The position numbers and the translations under genes are program-made. The notes under the pieces were generated by a model that was not told where the DNA came from, searched no databases, and was given only the letters and a program-made list of their open reading frames with translations. This document shows, one piece after another, positions 17,637 to 25,829 of a stretch of 25,829 nt of DNA. This DNA is from a virus. Taxonomy: Duplodnaviria > Heunggongvirae > Uroviricota > Caudoviricetes. Location: IMG/VR virus record IMGVR_UViG_2802429220_000017. One strand, 5' to 3'. Every line of letters begins with the position of its first letter. Within the stretch, counting starts at the first letter, position 1.

Positions 17637-20600
17637 ATGGGTAAAGGCAGCAGTAAGGGGCATACCCCGCGCGAAGCGAAGGATAATCTCAAATCAACGC
17701 AGTTGCTGAGTGTGATTGATGCCATCAGTGAAGGGCCGATTGAAGGTCCGGTGGATGGATTAAAAAGCGTGCTGCTGAACAGTACGCCGGTGCTGGACAC
17801 TGAGGGGAATACCAACATCTCCGGTGTCACGGTGGTGTTCCGGGCAGGTGAGCAGGAGCAGACTCCGCCGGAGGGATTTGAATCCTCTGGCTCCGAGACG
17901 GTGCTGGGTACGGAAGTGAAATATGACACGCCGATCACCCGGACCATCACGTCTGCAAATATCGACCGTCTGCGCTTTACCTTCGGTGTGCAGGCACTGG
18001 TGGAAACCACCTCAAAGGGGGACAGGAATCCGTCGGAAGTCCGCCTGCTGGTTCAGATACAACGTAACGGTGGCTGGGTGACGGAAAAAGACATCACCAT
18101 TAAGGGCAAAACCACCTCGCAGTATCTGGCCTCGGTGGTGGTGGATAACCTGCCTCCGCGCCCGTTCAATATCCGGATGCGCAGGATGACACCGGACAGC
18201 ACCACAGACCAGCTGCAGAACAAAACGCTCTGGTCGTCATACACCGAAATCATCGATGTGAAACAGTGCTACCCGAACACGGCACTGGTCGGCGTGCAGG
18301 TGGACTCGGAACAGTTCGGCAGCCAGCAGGTGAGCCGTAATTATCATCTTCGCGGGCGCATTCTGCAGGTGCCGTCGAACTATAACCCGCAGACGCGGCA
18401 ATACAGCGGTATCTGGGACGGAACGTTTAAGCCAGCATACAGCAACAACATGGCCTGGTGTCTGTGGGATATGCTGACCCATCCCCGCTACGGCATGGGG
18501 AAGCGTCTCGGTGCGGCGGATGTGGACAAATGGGCGCTGTATGTCATCGGCCAGAATTGCGACCAGTCGGTGCCGGATGGCTTTGGTGGCACGGAGCCTC
18601 GCATCACCTGTAATGCTTACCTGACCACACAGCGCAAGGCGTGGGATGTGCTCAGTGATTTCTGCTCGGCGATGCGCTGTATGCCGGTATGGAACGGGCA
18701 GACGCTGACGTTCGTGCAGGACCGACCGTCGGATAAGGTGTGGACCTATAACCGCAGTAATGTGGTGATGCCGGATGATGGCGCGCCGTTCCGCTACAGC
18801 TTCAGCGCCCTGAAGGACCGCCATAATGCCGTTGAAGTGAACTGGATTGACCCGAATAACGGCTGGGAGACGGCGACAGAGCTTGTGGAGGACACGCAGG
18901 CCATTGCCCGTTACGGTCGTAACGTCACGAAGATGGATGCCTTTGGCTGTGCCAGCCGGGGGCAGGCACACCGCGCCGGGCTGTGGCTGATTAAAACGGA
19001 GCTGCTGGAAACGCAGACCGTGGACTTCAGCGTGGGCGCAGAAGGGCTTCGCCATGTACCGGGCGATGTCATTGAAATCTGCGATGATGACTATGCGGGT
19101 ATCAGCATCGGCGGGCGCGTGCTGGCGGTGAACAGCCAGACGCGGACACTGACGCTCGACCGTGAAATCATGCTGCCATCCTCCGGAACCACGCTGATAA
19201 GCCTGGTTGACGGAAATGGCAATCCGGTCAGCGTGGAGGTCCAGTCCGTCACCGACGGCGTGAAGGTGAAAGTGAGCCGGGTTCCTGACGGCGTTGCTGA
19301 ATACAGCGTGTGGGGGCTGAAGCTGCCGACGCTGCGCCAGCGCCTGTTCCGCTGTGTGAGTATCCGTGAGAACGACGACGGCACGTATGCCATCACTGCC
19401 GTGCAGCATGTACCGGAGAAGGAAGCCATCGTGGATAACGGGGCGCACTTTGACGGCGACCAGAGCGGAACGGTGAACGGTGTCACGCCGCCAGCAGTTC
19501 AGCACCTGACCGCAGAAGTCACCGCAGACAGCGGGGAATATCAGGTGCTGGCGCGCTGGGACACGCCGAAGGTGGTGAAGGGCGTGAGCTTCCTGCTTCG
19601 CCTGACCGTGGCTGCGGATGATGGCAGTGAACGGCTGGTCAGCACGGCCCGGACGACGGAAACTACATACCGCTTCAGGCAACTGGCGCTGGGAAATTAC
19701 AGGCTGACAGTCCGGGCGGCAAATGCCTGGGGGCAGCAGGGCGATCCGGCATCGGTATCGTTCCGGATTGCCGCACCGGCAGCGCCGTCGCGGATTGAGC
19801 TGACGCCGGGCTATTTTCAGATAACCGCCACGCCCCATCTTGCCGTTTATGATCCGACGGTACAGTTTGAGTTCTGGTTCTCGGAAAAGCGGATTGCGGA
19901 TATCAGGCAGGTTGAAACCACAGCCCGCTATCTTGGCACGGCGCTGTACTGGATAGCTGCCAGTATCAATATTAAGCCGGGCCATGATTATTATTTTTAC
20001 GTTCGCAGTGTGAACACCGTTGGCAAATCGGCATTCGTGGAGGCTGTCGGTCGGGCGAGCGATGATGCGGAAGGTTACCTGGATTTTTTCAAAGGCCAGA
20101 TAACTGAATCCCATCTCGGCAAGGAGCTGCTGGAAAAAGTCGACCTGACGGAGGATAACGCCAGCAGACTGGATCAGTTTTCGAAAGAGTGGAAAGACGC
20201 CAACGATAAATGGAATGCCATGTGGGGCGTCAAAATTGAGCAGACCGAAGACGGCAGGCATTATGTCGCGGGGCTTGGCCTCAGCATGGAGGATACGGAG
20301 GAAGGTAAACTGAGCCAGTTCCTGGTTGCCGCTAACCGTATCGCGTTTATTGACCCGGCAAACGGGAATGAAACGCCGATGTTTGTGGCGCAGGGCAACC
20401 AGATATTCATGAACGAAGTGTTCCTGAAGTATCTGACGGCTCCCACCATTACCAGCGGCGGCAATCCTCCGGTATTTTCCCTGACACCGGACGGGCGGCT
20501 GACGGCGAAAAATGCCGATATCAGCGGTAACGTGAATGCGAACTCCGGGACGCTCAACAACGTCACGGTAAATGAAAACTGTACGATTAAGGGTATGCTG

Positions 20601-21050
20601 GAGGCGAACCAGGTCAGAGGTGACTTCGTTAAAACTGTCTCCAAATCATTCCCGAAACAGGCTGGTACGTGGGGTAACACGGAAACACCAAACGGGACGG
20701 TTACAGTCACCATCAGTGATGATCATAACTTTGACCGTCAAATCATTATTCCGCCCATTATCTTTAACGGAATAGCGTATAGCGATCCGGGAAGTGGTAA
20801 TAACCCGGGAGGTACAAGATACACGGGTTATGGTTTTGAAGTTCGCAAAAACGGTGTATTAATCGCATCCAGAGAAACTAAAGGGGCCATTCCCGGTAGC
20901 TACAGTGCGGTTATTGATATGCCGAGTGGCAGGGGAAGTGTCACTCTGGAGTTTAAGGTTTTCCATAAAGGCAATCAGTGGGCAGGTAATATCACCGACT
21001 GTACGGTGATTGTGACCAAAAAAGCCGCTTCCGGCATCAGTATTCGTTGA
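17637..21050 (+). CDS. J: Tail tip central fibre / host specificity protein J
   Basis: 1137 aa. Resembles recalled lambda gpJ along most of its length; the final ~130 aa diverge. GGAG SD 8 nt upstream. Confidence 0.93.
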
Positions 21051-21071
21051 AATTGTTATAACCCATATAAG

Positions 21072-21096
21072 GGCACCAGAAATGGTGCCTTTTTTA
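21072..21096 (+). terminator. Intrinsic terminator after J
   Basis: GGCACC-agaaat-GGTGCC stem followed by TTTTTT. Confidence 0.65.
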
Positions 21097-21119: not shown

Positions 21120-21719
21120 ATGCGTAAAGTTTGTGCAGCAATTTTGTCCGCAGCCATTTGTCTGGCCGTATCCGGTGCGCCTGCATGGGCGTCTGAACAT
21201 CAGTCCACGCTGAGCGCGGGGTATCTTCATGCCTCGACCAACGTTCCCGGCAGCGATGATCTGAACGGGATTAACGTGAAATACCGTTATGAGTTTACGG
21301 ATACGCTGGGGATGGTGACGTCATTCAGCTATGCAGGAGACAAGAATCGCCAGCTGACCCGTTACAGCGATACCCGCTGGCATGAAGATTCCGTGCGTAA
21401 CCGCTGGTTCAGCGTGATGGCGGGGCCGTCTGTGCGCGTGAATGAATGGTTCAGTGCTTATGCGATGGCGGGTGTGGCTTACAGCCGTGTTTCGACGTTC
21501 TCCGGGGATTATCTCCGCGTAACTGACAACAAGGGGAAAACGCACGATGTGCTGACCGGAAGTGATGGCGGTCGCCACAGCAACACGTCTCTGGCGTGGG
21601 GGGCTGGCGTGCAGTTTAACCCGACCGAATCCGTGGCCATTGACCTTGCTTATGAAGGTTCCGGCAGTGGCGACTGGCGCACTGACGGTTTCATCGTGGG
21701 TGTCGGTTATAAATTCTGA
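21120..21719 (+). CDS. lom: Outer membrane protein Lom (Ail/Lom/PagC family beta-barrel), moron
   Basis: Signal peptide (AAILSAAICLAVSGAPAWA). C-terminal YEGSGSGDWRTDGFIVGVGYKF matches recalled lambda Lom. Own SD and flanking terminators. Confidence 0.92.
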   Translation: MRKVCAAILSAAICLAVSGAPAWASEHQSTLSAGYLHASTNVPGSDDLNGINVKYRYEFTDTLGMVTSFSYAGDKNRQLTRYSDTRWHEDSVRNRWFSVMAGPSVRVNEWFSAYAMAGVAYSRVSTFSGDYLRVTDNKGKTHDVLTGSDGGRHSNTSLAWGAGVQFNPTESVAIDLAYEGSGSGDWRTDGFIVGVGYKF

Positions 21720-21745: not shown

Positions 21746-21773
21746 AGCCCGCCGGTTCAGGCGGGCTTTTTTG
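21746..21773 (+). terminator. Intrinsic terminator after lom
   Basis: AGCCCGCC-ggttca-GGCGGGCT stem followed by TTTTTT. Confidence 0.65.
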
Positions 21774-21783
21774 TGGAGTGGAT

Positions 21784-24168
21784 ATGGCAGCAGTAAAAAT
21801 CTCAGGTGTGCTGAAAGATGGTGCGGGAAAACCAATACAGAACTGCACTATTCAACTGAAGGCAAAGCGTAACAGCACCACGGTACTGGTGAACACGGTG
21901 GCCTCTGAAAATCCGGATGAAGCCGGGCGTTACAGCATGGATGTTGAGTATGGCCAGTACAGCGTCATCCTGCTGGTTGAAGGTTTTCCGCCTTCACATG
22001 CCGGGACCATTACCGTCTATGAAGGCTCCAGACCAGGTACGCTGAATGATTTTCTCGGTGCCATGACGGAAGATGATGTCATGCCGGAGGCATTGCGTCG
22101 TTTTGAGGCAATGGTGGAAGAAGCGGCACGCAACGCTGAAGCCGCCTCTCAGAGCGCAGCGGCGGCAAAGAAATCCGAAACTGCAGCGGCATCATCGAAG
22201 AACGCGGCGAAAACCTCAGAAACGAATGCAGCTAACAGCGCACAGGCGGCAGCGGCCTCGCAGACTGCATCGGCAAATTCCGCGACAGCAGCTAAAAAAT
22301 CAGAAACCAACGCGAAAAATAGCGAAACAGCCGCAAAGACGAGCGAAACCAATGCAAAGTCCAGCCAGACGGCAGCGAAAACCAGCGAAACGAATGCCAA
22401 AGCCAGTGAAACTGCGGCGAAAAACAGCCAGGCTGCAGCAGCTGAAAGTGAGAGCGCGGCAGCCGGTTCTGCGACTTCAGCAGCCGGATCAGCAACTGCT
22501 GCGGCTAACAGCCAGAAAGCCGCGAAGACGAGTGAAACTAACGCAAAGTCCAGCCAGACGGCAGCGAAGACCAGCGAAACGAATGCTAAAGCCAGCGAAA
22601 CTGCGGCGAAAAACAGTCAGGATGCAGCAGCCGAAAGCGAGAGTGCCGCAGCTGGTTCTGCAAGTGCGGCGGCTTCTTCTGCCACTGCATCAGCCAACAG
22701 TCAAAAAGCTGCAAAAACCAGTGAAACCAACGCAAAGGCGAGCGAGACTGCGGCTGCTAACTCGGCGAAAGCATCCGCTGCAAGCCAGACGGCTGCAAAA
22801 GCAAGTGAAGACGCAGCCAGGGAGTACGCAAGCCAGGCAGCAGAGCCGTATAAATATGTCTTACAGCCGCTTCCTGATGTGTGGATACCGTTTAACGATT
22901 CACTGGATATGATTACGGGCTTTTCGCCATCATATAAAAAGATTGTTATTGGTGATGATGAAATAACAATGCCTGGCGACAAGATTGTAAAGTTTAAACG
23001 CGCATCAAAAGCAACTTACATTAATAAATCTGGTGTGCTGACAGAGGCTGCAATCGATGAACCTCGCTTTGAAAAGTATGGATTGCTGATTGAAGGGCAG
23101 CGTACAAACCTGTTAATAAACAGCACAAATCCATCAAAGTGGAACAAGTCATCAAATATGATTTTAAATACATCAGGTGTAGATGATTTTGGTTTCCAGT
23201 ACGCAAAATTCACATTAAAACCAGAAATGGTGGGGCAAACCTCAGCCATTTCTATTGTCACAGTATCTGGAAGCAAAGGATATGATGTTACCGGCGATGA
23301 AAAGTATGTAACTATCTCATGCAGGGTACAAAGTGGGACTCCAAATTTAAGATGTCGATTACGATTTGAAGAATATGATGGATCTACCTACAAATTTCTG
23401 GGTGATGCTTACTTAAATATGACAGATTTATCGATTGATAAAACTGGCGGCGCTGCAAGTCGTATTACTGCAAGGGCTGTTAAAAATGAAGCAAGCAAAT
23501 GGATTTTCTTTGAGGCAACAATTAAGGCACTTGATACAGAAAATATGATCGGTGCGATGGTGCAATATGCACCACCAAAAGGGGGAAGCACTGGTGCAGA
23601 TGATTATATTTATGTTGCAACTCCTCAGGTCGAAGGCGGTTCGTGCGCTTCTTCGTTTATTATTACTGAGGCAACGCCAGTCACAAGAGCCAGTGATATG
23701 GTGAATATACCAACAAATAACAATATCGGTACACCACCTTTAACATTTCTAGCTGAAGTTCATACAAACTGGAACGAAACGCCAAATGCAGCACCACGAA
23801 TTTTTGATACCAGTGGTGGGAGCACAACTCCGGGTCAATATATAAGTGTTGCTATTAGTTCAACATTATTTCCTGGTGTTACGATGTACAATAAAAACGG
23901 TAGTACAGTAGCCGCCGTATCGCCAGTATTATTTGAACAAAAATCTGTTCTTGGATTTGTTTTAAATGAATCTGGTAATGTGCATTTCGTTAGCAATGCT
24001 CAGCATGGAACTCCTAAAACTACGGATCATGTCGGTGTTAAATCTGGTTATTTCTTCAGGATTGGTGGGCAGACTAATAGCGGCCTACGTCATCTTTTCG
24101 GTCACATTCGTAATTTTCGTATATGGCATAAAGAATTAACCGATGCGCAAATGGGAGAGGTAATATAA
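21784..24168 (+). CDS. stf: Side tail fibre protein (Stf-like): lambda-type N-terminal anchor, repetitive Ala-rich shaft, divergent AT-rich C-terminal receptor-binding region
   Basis: N-terminus MAAVKISGVLKDGAGKPIQNCTIQLKA..GRYSMDVEYGQYSVIL..GFPPSHAGTITVYE matches the recalled lambda Stf N-terminus. Shaft has tandem KTSETNAKxSxTAAK repeats. C-terminal end (..HLFGHIRNFRIWHKELTDAQM) suggests a lectin/jellyroll-type tip; this is low-confidence motif recognition. Confidence 0.88.
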   Translation: MAAVKISGVLKDGAGKPIQNCTIQLKAKRNSTTVLVNTVASENPDEAGRYSMDVEYGQYSVILLVEGFPPSHAGTITVYEGSRPGTLNDFLGAMTEDDVMPEALRRFEAMVEEAARNAEAASQSAAAAKKSETAAASSKNAAKTSETNAANSAQAAAASQTASANSATAAKKSETNAKNSETAAKTSETNAKSSQTAAKTSETNAKASETAAKNSQAAAAESESAAAGSATSAAGSATAAANSQKAAKTSETNAKSSQTAAKTSETNAKASETAAKNSQDAAAESESAAAGSASAAASSATASANSQKAAKTSETNAKASETAAANSAKASAASQTAAKASEDAAREYASQAAEPYKYVLQPLPDVWIPFNDSLDMITGFSPSYKKIVIGDDEITMPGDKIVKFKRASKATYINKSGVLTEAAIDEPRFEKYGLLIEGQRTNLLINSTNPSKWNKSSNMILNTSGVDDFGFQYAKFTLKPEMVGQTSAISIVTVSGSKGYDVTGDEKYVTISCRVQSGTPNLRCRLRFEEYDGSTYKFLGDAYLNMTDLSIDKTGGAASRITARAVKNEASKWIFFEATIKALDTENMIGAMVQYAPPKGGSTGADDYIYVATPQVEGGSCASSFIITEATPVTRASDMVNIPTNNNIGTPPLTFLAEVHTNWNETPNAAPRIFDTSGGSTTPGQYISVAISSTLFPGVTMYNKNGSTVAAVSPVLFEQKSVLGFVLNESGNVHFVSNAQHGTPKTTDHVGVKSGYFFRIGGQTNSGLRHLFGHIRNFRIWHKELTDAQMGEVI
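22180..22810 (+). repeat. In-frame tandem repeats in the stf shaft; two ~146-bp copies spaced 189 bp apart (about 22331-22476 and 22520-22665) plus degenerate flanking copies
   Basis: Direct comparison of the two blocks (GCCGCAAAGACGAGCGAAACCAATGCAAAGTCCAGCCAGACGGCAGCGAAAACCAGCGAAACGAATGC... versus GCCGCGAAGACGAGTGAAACTAACGCAAAGTCCAGCCAGACGGCAGCGAAGACCAGCGAAACGAATGC...) shows about 90% identity. Confidence 0.8.
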
Positions 24169-24449
24169 TGCGAGATTTAATTATCAAATTCACAGACAAG
24201 GCCGACTTTTCGGCCTTTATGGATAGCATTGGTTATTATGATGACGAGATGATGCAGAACGATGTTCTCATTGATGTAATAGGTGACGTATACAAAGAAA
24301 CAGGCGAACTTACTGAAGATGGCGAGCCGGTATGTGTTAAGGAAGACGGATATTTTGTAAACGTGCGCATCATTAATGATTCGCAAATATCGTCATTATT
24401 CGATGAATACGCGGTTGTAGTTGAACATCAACTTCGTGACTGGATGTGA
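24168..24449 (+). CDS. Hypothetical 93-aa acidic protein, translationally coupled to stf (possible fibre assembly/accessory protein)
   Basis: ATG overlaps the stf stop (TAATG). AT-rich. No family recognised. Confidence 0.55.
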   Translation: MRDLIIKFTDKADFSAFMDSIGYYDDEMMQNDVLIDVIGDVYKETGELTEDGEPVCVKEDGYFVNVRIINDSQISSLFDEYAVVVEHQLRDWM

Positions 24450-24458
24450 GGGAGACAA

Positions 24459-25499
24459 ATGGCTACATCGACCGTAATTCCTGATGACATCAAAACGCTA
24501 AAATCGGATGTTAGTAAATTAAAAACCGATCAAGGAAACTACGCAACAAAATCTTATGTAGACAATAAAACAACATGGAATGGTTATTGCAATGTAATCT
24601 ATGATCAAAAAACATTGCCAACAACTGGTACTATATTCAGCGGTAAGCTGCATTTGTCAAATAAGACTGGTGAAACGGAAAACGCTTATAGTGACATATA
24701 TACCAGAAAAAATATTGATGGTACTAAAGATACAATGACGAGGATCGTCACACATAACGGGACAAAAGGTATCTTTTGGGACTTTAGTGATCTTTACGGC
24801 GGAACATTAATTTTTCCAGGCAGTGATGGTTACCTCAAGATGGGGAACTGTCTCATGTCGTATGGTGTGCGGGGAAGTAACGCGCTTATTAAGTTTGATT
24901 ACACCGACTCCTTACAGATCAAATATGCCAATCATGGGTCGACCATGACATTAAACACACAGGGAACCGCTCACGCTGGCGTAACAACTCGACTATGGGG
25001 CAATTCTAGCCGTCCGGTTGTTTATGAAGTTGGTGTAGATGGTGAGGCTTTTATATTCTTCGGTCAAAAACAAACAGATGGCACATATGGATTTGCTGTT
25101 AATGGTGTATGTCAAGCGACCGCATTTAACCAGACCTCTGACCGAGACCTGAAAGATAATATTCAGGTGATCGATAATGCAACCGACCGCATTCGTAAAA
25201 TGAACGGCTATACATACACGCTTAAAGAAAACGGTATGCCTTACGCTGGTGTTATTGCACAAGAAGCCCTGGAAGCCATCCCCGAAGCCGTAGGGTCTAT
25301 GATGAAATATCCAGACGGTGGGAGTGGATTAGATGGAGAAGAAGGTGAACGGTATTACACTGTAGATTATTCTGGTGTTACTGGCTTGCTTGTTCAGGCA
25401 GCCAGAGAGTCAGACGACAGGATAACAGCACTGGAAGAAGAAAACGCAGAATTAAGACAAAGATTATCTGCAATTGAGGCGGCGCTTGCGTCTAAATAA
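24459..25499 (+). CDS. Tail fibre/spike protein with C-terminal intramolecular chaperone (peptidase S74-like) domain
   Basis: C-terminal region SDRDLKDNIQ...GYTY.LKENG...GVIAQEALEAIPEAV...YTVDYSGVTGLLVQAARESDDRITALEEENAELRQRL matches the conserved pattern of autoproteolytic chaperone domains of phage fibres and endosialidases. GAGGGAGA SD upstream. Confidence 0.75.
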   Translation: MATSTVIPDDIKTLKSDVSKLKTDQGNYATKSYVDNKTTWNGYCNVIYDQKTLPTTGTIFSGKLHLSNKTGETENAYSDIYTRKNIDGTKDTMTRIVTHNGTKGIFWDFSDLYGGTLIFPGSDGYLKMGNCLMSYGVRGSNALIKFDYTDSLQIKYANHGSTMTLNTQGTAHAGVTTRLWGNSSRPVVYEVGVDGEAFIFFGQKQTDGTYGFAVNGVCQATAFNQTSDRDLKDNIQVIDNATDRIRKMNGYTYTLKENGMPYAGVIAQEALEAIPEAVGSMMKYPDGGSGLDGEEGERYYTVDYSGVTGLLVQAARESDDRITALEEENAELRQRLSAIEAALASK

Positions 25500-25505
25500 T
25501 ATTAA

Positions 25506-25527
25506 GGGGCCGAGCGCCCCGTTATAT
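25506..25527 (+). terminator. Weak hairpin after the fibre gene
   Basis: GGGGC-cgagc-GCCCC stem followed by GTTATATT (poor U-tract). Confidence 0.3.
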
Positions 25528-25535
25528 TGGGTAGG

Positions 25536-25829
25536 ATGAAAATGGATATAACACCTTTCCTTCATGCTCTTTGTGCTGTGGCTGCGCAGCTACTGATTGG
25601 TCTTTTTACCGGGAACTGGGCTTACGGAGCGATAGCCGGTTGTACGTTCTTCATTGCGCGTGAACACACCCAGGCAGAATATCGCTGGATTGAAATGTTC
25701 GGGCATGGCAAGCGAATGAATATGCCGTGGTGGGGCGGTTTTGATCCACGTGCATGGGATGTAGCAAGCCTGATGGATTTTGCTGTGCCGGTGATAGCGT
25801 GTCTGCTGGTCTGGCTGGTATTTCGTTGA
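25536..25829 (+). CDS. Predicted multi-pass membrane protein, 3'-truncated by the window end
   Basis: ORF runs off the window. At least three hydrophobic segments (FLHALCAVAAQLLIGLF, AYGAIAGCTFFIA, FAVPVIACLLVWLVF). Start ambiguous (TTG 25527, ATG 25536 or ATG 25542). Confidence 0.5.
   Translation: MKMDITPFLHALCAVAAQLLIGLFTGNWAYGAIAGCTFFIAREHTQAEYRWIEMFGHGKRMNMPWWGGFDPRAWDVASLMDFAVPVIACLLVWLVFR

Follow-up and report, generated by a model that had tools for sequence, protein, structure and literature searches.

Stf, p93 and orf346: a probable two-part side tail fibre in a lambda-like prophage

Which protein forms the tip of a side tail fibre when the gene that follows stf is not the chaperone gene tfa? 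The question is raised by IMGVR_UViG_2802429220_000017, a viral stretch of 25,829 nucleotides that we call the window, and to whose positions all coordinates refer. It corresponds to the late region of a lambda-like prophage, with lysis, terminase, head and tail genes, J and lom. An earlier note on its sequence had remarked that stf is followed there by a coupled open reading frame (ORF) for an acidic protein of 93 amino acids and by one for a protein of 346, and the gene layout bears this out in coordinates, overlap and spacing. On the plus strand, stf (21778..24168), recognised by its ORF and its domain matches, encodes the proximal side tail fibre protein Stf, of 796 residues; next come the gene of p93 (24168..24449), an acidic alpha+beta protein that accompanies such fibre C-termini, and orf346 (24459..25499), whose product is the putative distal, or second, fibre protein, with a predicted self-cleaving chaperone at its C-terminus. 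The ATG of the p93 gene shares the bases TAATG with the stop of stf and has GGGAGAGG upstream; orf346 starts after a 9-nucleotide spacer and has GAGGGAG upstream. The name p93 is kept for the 93-residue protein of the window, and its homologues of 91-93 residues in other phages are labelled p92.

A tfa gene is indeed missing after stf: a Pfam scan of four proteins, namely Stf, p93, orf346 and the product of a downstream 100-residue ORF, finds no Caudo_TAP (Tfa-type) match, and neither Pfam nor NCBIfam yields domain evidence for reading p93 or orf346 as Tfa. Our answer is that stf, p93 and orf346 probably encode a two-part side tail fibre, in which orf346 is a distal fibre docked on Stf. Such docking of a second receptor-binding protein had already been suggested for orf346, and it is the best reading of the gene order, of the homology to phage IrisVonRoten, and of the detection of a homologue in virions of phage SIA3lw. 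For this prophage, docking, self-cleavage and receptor specificity are proposals that build on homology and synteny, and on what two papers report of related phages.

Chaperone, fibre repeat and variable segment in orf346

The C-terminus of orf346 had been credited with an S74-type chaperone signature, and the domain search upholds this: residues 227-278 match the Pfam family PF13884 (Peptidase_S74), scoring 53.5 bits (E=3e-14) where the cut-off is 22. The motif SDRDLK, previously placed at about 25135, is present, and its exact position is 25137..25154, or residues 227-232. Its Ser227 (25137..25139) and Lys232 (25152..25154) have the spacing S-x-x-x-x-K that is typical of the S74 family; they align with SSDRRIK of gp37 of phage S16, and the C-terminal region of orf346 aligns with the C-terminus of that solved fibre, 6f45. 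In an alignment of 26 relatives, the residues S227, D228, R229, D230, L231 and K232 are each at least 90% conserved, and A263, G264, I266, A267, Q268 and E269 of the GVIAQE motif are invariant. The AlphaFold2 monomer model has a helix at the C-terminus, residues 304-345. Judged by its sequence, the C-terminal part of orf346 (residues 227-346, 25137..25496, plus strand) is an S74-type intramolecular chaperone. The S74 domain drives the folding of a trimer, and then cleaves itself off. The predicted cut, before Ser227, would divide the 37.9-kDa protein into a mature fibre of 226 residues and 24.8 kDa, and a fragment of 13 kDa.

Just 5' of the cleavage site, residues 170-226 (24966..25136, plus strand) form a fibre repeat of the type found in T4 gp34, with the pattern WGN..VYEVG..F..NG: in a profile search against the sequences of the PDB, they match the gp34 structures 4uxe and 5nxf with E=3e-8. 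The chaperone thus stands behind a genuine trimeric fibre element. Further upstream, residues 32-110 (24552..24788, plus strand) are hypervariable: identity to the homologue of phage Tritos falls to 35% in this segment, against 79-94% elsewhere in the protein, and the contrast makes the segment the likely determinant of specificity. The conserved parts of the gene are under purifying selection, with a ratio of nonsynonymous to synonymous substitution rates (dN/dS) of 0.08-0.15. Together with the gp34 repeat, this indicates that orf346 is a fibre and not a remnant. In the AlphaFold2 model, the region of residues 45-225, approximately, is a beta-rich core with a predicted local distance difference test score (pLDDT) of about 63-89 by blocks of 10 residues.

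The protein is known to databases, as are its two neighbours: all three are already in PHROG families. The family phrog_4563, "tail fiber protein", spans orf346 over its full length (E=1e-200), and the exact sequence is found at NCBI as WP_105282966.1, a "tail fiber domain-containing protein" of unclassified Escherichia; another exact protein of the module is BDI53801.1, a "hypothetical protein", again of unclassified Escherichia. Several NCBI entries give an N-terminally shortened version of this type of protein, of 254 residues, and in some E. coli genomes the homologue is cut by an element of the insertion sequence (IS) family IS3 (matches H31 and H32). Besides Peptidase_S74, Pfam reports two weak unrelated matches, neither of them Caudo_TAP, and NCBIfam reports none. 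A depolymerase-like tip, which had also been considered, we reject: Pfam and NCBIfam find no enzymatic beta-helix or glycosidase domain, and the mature part would have only 226 residues.

The putative docking motif and its partner

How would such a fibre be held on the virion? It had been stated that the N-terminus of orf346 lacks any attachment domain. This is correct as far as domain libraries go, which do not recognise it, but comparison with other phages uncovers a conserved peptide in residues 1-17, MATSTVIPDDIKTLKSD (24459..24509, plus strand), which heads non-homologous third genes, that is, the genes that follow stf and p92 in other phages. These starts follow the pattern M-x-T-x-T-[VN]-I-P-x-D-I-x-x-L-K, with MATSTVIPDDIKTLK in the window and MVTKTVIPTDITKLK in IrisVonRoten. 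Eight of nine comparators share 53-100% of residues 1-17 with orf346; in VogelGryff, the identity is 18% without gaps, and 10 of 17 residues match after an offset of one residue. The remainder of the protein is 25-41% identical to orf346 in the non-homologous third genes. The proteins that carry the motif are as diverse as the 574 residues of IrisVonRoten Gp24 and the 580 of SIA3lw ORF44, both from T5-like phages, the 384-388 residues, depending on the start codon, of VogelGryff (Seuratvirus), the 351 of ESCO3 (Nonagvirus), the 234 of IdasGreatGrand, and the third genes of the T1-like orkinos and of KarlBarth (Dhillonvirus, gp30/31), the latter ending in a Phage_tail_C_2 domain instead of S74.

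Phage IdasGreatGrand sets the limits of the motif with some precision. Its stf and 93-residue gene are near-identical to those of the window, the matched pieces of DNA averaging 96.6% identity; its third gene encodes a different protein of 234 residues with its own S74 domain, and the start MATSTVIPgDItTLK is all that it has in common with orf346. Homology at the DNA level ends about 45 nucleotides into the third gene, and sets in again where the downstream gene, for a membrane protein, begins. A second limit is given by relatives of the body of IrisVonRoten Gp24 that occur in other architectures: the alignment starts at residue 27 with single-chain fibres of Dhillonvirus and with LtfA of DT57C, and at residue 49 in SU10-like podophages. 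Residues 1 to about 27 thus behave as a separate, exchangeable module. In orf346, the AlphaFold2 monomer has, with low confidence, a helix at residues 9-29, and several relatives have extra repeat segments of the type DISTAKTNITTLQNDVKTAKS after the motif, which may form a coiled-coil stalk of variable length. In the virulent orkinos (L087 4292..5030) and KarlBarth (L088 4270..5149), annotation splits the third gene into two ORFs that overlap, one with motif and stalk and the other with the tip; programmed slippage, a frameshift or an error of sequencing may be behind this.

The motif keeps constant company. A tblastn search with p93 returns 181 phage records, and in the 14 loci that we inspected the match lies directly 3' of a lateral or side tail fibre gene, except in 4A7, whose fibre gene has transposase genes in place of its end. 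The fibre proteins at these loci end in ..IRIGGQTxxGxRHLFGH[IV]RNFR[IV]WHKxLxDxQ.., a sequence that diverges in the rV5-like EmilHeitz only; Stf itself has the signature GGQT..G.RHLFGH[IV]RNFR[IV]WHK. Conversely, every inspected third gene that carries the motif has a p92 gene 2-12 nucleotides upstream. In IMG/VR, 80 loci contain a close homologue of p93, and 76 of them have readable sequence after it: a gene that starts with MATSTVIP follows 9 nucleotides downstream in 75, and the last one (L045) has MAIST. By type of third gene, 44 of the 80 loci have the 346-residue protein, 31 the 234-residue protein, and 5 are unclassified. Three distant relatives on T1-like contigs (39-42% identity) all have a gene of 91-92 residues immediately upstream, preceded in two cases by a full gene of about 650 residues, and in one case by a gene cut by the end of the contig. 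Among relatives that have the same tip and chaperone with other N-termini, neither of the two that were located, out of three, has p92 upstream; one of the two is a fibre of 596 residues directly after J.

The module, which an earlier proposal would have looked for in other phages, is found in lambda-like, T5-like, T1-like, 9g-like and Dhillonvirus phages, and its 1.7-kb region turns up, at 80% coverage or more, in 519 or more of the 5426 complete E. coli genomes. Since the tail tips of these phages are unrelated, the partner of the motif should be encoded within the module, by the fibre C-terminus, by p93 or by both. The nucleotide identity with ESCO3, 84.7% over 34% of a 4.1-kb query and scattered in pieces over 2.5 kb, indicates that the block moves between phage families. 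The earlier note saw a block acquired as one module, with the AT-rich composition of the stf tip. The shared composition stands: the G+C fraction is 0.396 in the C-terminal body of stf, 0.397 in the p93 gene and 0.42 in orf346, against 0.55 in the N-terminus and shaft of stf and 0.51 in the next gene. The single acquisition is too simple, as recombination acts separately on three segments or more: the C-terminal body of Stf, of one type in the window and IdasGreatGrand and another in Tritos, ESCO3 and IrisVonRoten; the p93 gene with the N-terminus of the third gene; and the third-gene body, which comes in 346-residue types, a 234-residue type, and others.

On the side of Stf, the layout is that of a lambda-type anchor (residues 5-134), followed by a shaft of Ala/Ser/Thr/Lys-rich repeats (about 105-355) and an AT-rich C-terminal body (356-796). 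The N-terminus belongs to PF08400, phage_tail_N (E=8e-67), residues 5-97 match the solved N-terminus of the lambda tail fibre, 9e7m (E=1e-49), and phrog_1419 covers the full length. Residues 437-638 (23086..23691, plus strand) match NF048003, GTA_spike_fiber, of NCBIfam (E=2.2e-16, 60.9 bits against a cut-off of 36); this "phage head spike fiber" model relates a domain of coliphage side fibres to the spikes on the heads of gene transfer agents (GTA). The last 40 residues, GYFFRIGGQTNSGLRHLFGHIRNFRIWHKELTDAQMGEVI (24046..24165, plus strand), are constant in all variants of the module: they are 60-98% identical in 11 other modules, whereas the 120 residues before them are 34-41% identical, IdasGreatGrand excepted. 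Being the sole part of the tip that is conserved across all variants, they are a candidate for the surface of the joint. The N-terminal peptide of orf346 is most likely a short peptide that docks onto the end of Stf. The shaft also contains tandem repeats at the DNA level (22321..22748), with a unit of 189 nucleotides in 2.3 copies, 82% matches, and sub-periods of 21 and 42 nucleotides; they encode the Ala/Ser/Thr/Lys-rich repeats, and the same type of repeat is found in the shaft of IrisVonRoten Gp22.

Two published phages lend support to this arrangement. In the T5-like IrisVonRoten (Bas32), Gp24 was modelled by AlphaFold-Multimer as a distal fibre attached to a proximal Gp22 (Humolli et al. 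2025, PMC11990801); the same paper describes at the C-terminus of Gp22 a galectin-like domain that may itself bind a receptor, and barely discusses Gp23. In SIA3lw, ORF42 and the S74 protein ORF44 were both identified in virions by sodium dodecyl sulphate polyacrylamide gel electrophoresis and liquid chromatography coupled to tandem mass spectrometry, ORF44 with 20 peptides and 46% coverage (PMC12752171).

Assuming that the same holds in the window, the fibre would be built as follows. Trimers of Stf would sit on the tail tip by their lambda-type N-terminal domain, and would bear the long repeat shaft and then the C-terminal body, made of the GTA-spike-fibre-like domain and a terminal domain, galectin-like in the IrisVonRoten homologue. 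The product of orf346 would be a short trimer, in which the chaperone (227-346) nucleates the folding of the gp34-like repeat, and then cuts itself off before Ser227 by means of Ser227 and Lys232, leaving the 226-residue mature fibre. By its N-terminal peptide and the helix that follows, the mature fibre would plug onto the distal end of Stf, either on the invariant last 40 residues or so of Stf, or on a complex of Stf and p93. The result would be a second, exchangeable receptor-binding tip, its specificity probably coming from residues 32-110; p93 would be required with or without the distal fibre, and may help to form the joint.

The small acidic protein and the rival explanations

What, then, does p93 do? 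It has 22 acidic residues against 7 basic ones and an isoelectric point of 4.05, belongs to phrog_1361 (E=2e-43), and is 42% identical to IrisVonRoten Gp23 (tblastn, E=8e-18). Its gene is under purifying selection, with a median dN/dS of 0.19 over 78 loci. It has no Pfam family at E<=0.1, no NCBIfam match, and no meaningful match in PADLOC or among PDB sequences, and its family is small: an exhaustive search among 1.84 billion representatives gives 49 clusters at 50% identity. Residues 38-63 (24279..24356) have nine and five weak matches in immunoglobulin-like repeats of giant bacterial surface proteins (P0263 and P0283); limited to a hairpin of 26 residues, this is probably a coincidence at the level of a motif.

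The main alternative gives p93 a structural role: p93 would be an adaptor, or knee, in the virion, to which orf346 binds instead of binding Stf, as gp35 of T4 stands between gp34 and gp36. This we find rather unlikely, and the evidence on it has to be read piece by piece. The p92 gene directly upstream of every motif-bearing third gene, in the inspected loci, is what an adaptor predicts. So is the fact that subtypes of p92 loosely follow subtypes of the N-terminal motif, MATSTVIP.DI.TLK being the window type and MVTKTVIPTDITKLKNE the IrisVonRoten type; however, this tracking is inseparable from close linkage, which could account for it alone. The depositors of IrisVonRoten annotated Gp23 as "tail fiber protein". 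Moreover, as would be expected of a generic joint piece, p92 does not co-vary with the variable tip of Stf: between the window and Tritos, p92 is 86% identical and the tip 46%; between Tritos and IrisVonRoten, 38% and 75%; between phage 21 and Lambda_2G7a, 93% and 45%.

Against the adaptor stand phages that do without a third gene. In phage 21, Lambda_2G7a and ev243, stf is followed by p92 and directly by the gene of a 97-residue membrane protein, and in 4A7 the same two genes stand behind an IS-disrupted stf. Between phage 21 and ev243, p92 has dN 0.30 with dS saturated: it is constrained. Kept under constraint without a third gene, p92 must have a job that is independent of the distal fibre, and its presence there ties it to the Stf tip rather than to the role of dedicated adaptor; the idea of a 93-residue adaptor, raised by the earlier note, is weakened accordingly. 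Nor does any of the 49 family clusters contain a fusion of p92 to either fibre protein. The likeliest role we infer for p93 is that of an assembly factor or a small subunit of the Stf C-terminal domain, possibly part of the joint.

Several observations weigh against the two-part fibre as proposed, and against this role of p93 in it. The predicted fold of p93 has no informative relatives and no match to a chaperone. That p92 varies independently of the Stf tip's variable part is compatible with a chaperone role, and no proof of one. For orf346, the AlphaFold2 monomer, built on the 26-sequence alignment, is poor, with a pLDDT of 67 overall and about 45 in the chaperone region, and this weak model finds nothing with E<0.1 in the PDB by Foldseek, a null that is uninformative because the protein is an intertwined trimer. 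The SIA3lw gel lists no band below about 19 kDa, and is silent on the presence of p92 (ORF43) in virions, and the paper on IrisVonRoten, from the BASEL collection, names the proximal partner inconsistently, as Gp22 or Gp23 (PMC11990801).

A second alternative is that orf346 is an independent fibre attached directly to the tail tip or baseplate, and not to Stf. Other lambdoid prophages do have a single fibre of 596 residues (P0105) after J, with the same tip and chaperone and an N-terminus of its own. However, the motif of orf346 spans lambda-like, T5-like, T1-like, 9g-like and Dhillonvirus phages, whose tail-tip proteins differ; it comes behind the same fibre C-terminus and p92 in every inspected locus; and some 17 residues with a short helix are small for a direct anchor, all of which makes direct attachment very improbable. 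This 596-residue fibre lies directly after J on a contig from a human gut metagenome (L098, 4001..5791).

That orf346 is non-structural, a trans-acting chaperone of Stf or a decaying remnant of recombination, is the least probable of all: it takes the position of lambda tfa, its homologues in ESCO3 and VogelGryff are annotated as chaperones (the annotations in question read "endosialidase chaperone" or "putative lateral tail fiber chaperone"), and some copies are truncated or IS-interrupted, but it has a fibre repeat of its own and, as receptor binders typically do, a hypervariable segment, purifying selection acts on it, its SIA3lw homologue is a virion protein, the Stf homologue of phage 21 functions without a third gene, and S74 domains work in cis, on their own polypeptide.

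The two-part fibre, with orf346 docked on Stf, remains our preferred reading, and it invites a bolder one, which we offer tentatively and as rather doubtful: that p93, the last 40 or so residues of the proximal fibre and the 17 or so residues of the distal peptide are a universal plug-and-socket joint, through which enterobacterial siphophages of five or more unrelated families freely swap their distal receptor-binding fibres. On this view p93, to which no known fibre assembly protein is related, would be either a small structural connector of a new kind or a chaperone dedicated to the lectin-like end of the fibre.

Surroundings of the module and known systems

The module lies behind J (17637..21050) and lom (21120..21719). 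Strongly terminator-like hairpins with T-runs occupy both gaps, at 21069..21092 between J and lom, and at 21746..21767 between lom and stf; expression of stf, p93 and orf346 presumably needs antiterminated late read-through. On the plus strand, 3' of orf346, a GC-rich hairpin, GGGGCCGAGCGCCCC (25506..25520), is weakly terminator-like and present in Tritos too. It is followed by the gene of a 97-residue protein with two predicted transmembrane segments (25536..25829, the ORF being listed from a TTG at 25527), of family phrog_1443, function unknown. This gene adjoins the fibre module, and its stop codon ends on the last base of the window. It is found downstream of the module, with or without the third fibre gene, in Tritos, IdasGreatGrand, phage 21, Lambda_2G7a, ev243 and 4A7; it has no match in Pfam, NCBIfam or PADLOC. 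In phage 21, Lambda_2G7a and 4A7, the operon sitABCD, for an iron/manganese transporter, lies right 3' of it on the opposite strand.

The range of O-antigen types open to a siphophage is set by its side and lateral tail fibres. Many lambdoid prophages of E. coli share this two-part cassette, and not the textbook stf-tfa pair, with virulent T5-, T1- and 9g-like phages. As coliphages commonly carry the cassette, the find, though real, is an ordinary one that reveals no new mechanism. A literature search on the PHROG, FIG and VOG identifiers, and on phage Tritos, did not bring up any study devoted to these genes. What the comparison brings is a defined junction for the exchange of distal tips, made of the Stf C-terminus, p93 and an N-terminal peptide of about 17 residues, in which p93 is the one uncharacterised component. 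This junction offers a practical starting point, both to retarget delivery particles based on lambda and to predict host range from the sequence of a prophage; the paper from Eligo on the engineering of lambda Stf does not use this module.

Among known systems, lambda Stf-Tfa shares with the window the position after J and lom and the N-terminal anchor of Stf. Otherwise it differs: the window has no Tfa, the C-terminal two thirds of its Stf are of another type, and the two downstream genes are unrelated to tfa. The T4 long fibre, gp34-gp35-gp36-gp37, joins proximal and distal trimers by small connectors, and orf346 shares the fibre repeat of gp34; however, p93 has no homology to gp35 or gp36, and T4 uses the trans chaperones gp57A and gp38 rather than S74. 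The endosialidase of K1F, pb1 of T5 and gp37 of S16 have, like orf346, a C-terminal Ser-Lys dyad (S-D-R-x-x-K), GxIAQE, and a terminal helix after a trimeric beta-fibre, but their chaperone is carried by large, self-anchored fibres or spikes, whereas the anchor of orf346 would be a short peptide alone.

Closer in principle are the branched, L-shaped fibres of DT57C and DT571/2, in which an anchorless second fibre, LtfB, rides on LtfA and adds O-antigen specificity (Golomidova 2016, PMC4728585; Ayala 2023, PMC10713586). The docking peptide is a different one there, the first 45 residues of LtfB resembling gp15 of phiEco32, as the paper describes, and no gene lies between ltfA and ltfB, which have the consecutive numbers gp108 and gp107. 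It is LtfA of DT57C that aligns with the body of IrisVonRoten Gp24, from residue 27 on.

Closest of all are Gp22/23/24 of IrisVonRoten and ORF42/43/44 of SIA3lw, which have the same order of three genes, closely spaced, as the window. Over 748 aligned columns, residues 133-796 of Stf share 48% identity with IrisVonRoten Gp22; the similarity is higher still in residues 360-700 or thereabouts, and the C-terminal end is shared; the motif of Gp24 is identical to that of orf346 in 10 of 17 residues, and both proteins end in an S74 chaperone. The differences lie at the two extremities, and in the way of life. The proximal fibre of the window has the N-terminal anchor of lambda Stf, and not that of T5 LtfA; the distal fibre is short, with a single tip and a predicted 226 residues after maturation, where that of IrisVonRoten is T-shaped, with 574 residues and two binding domains; and the element that carries them is a temperate lambdoid prophage.

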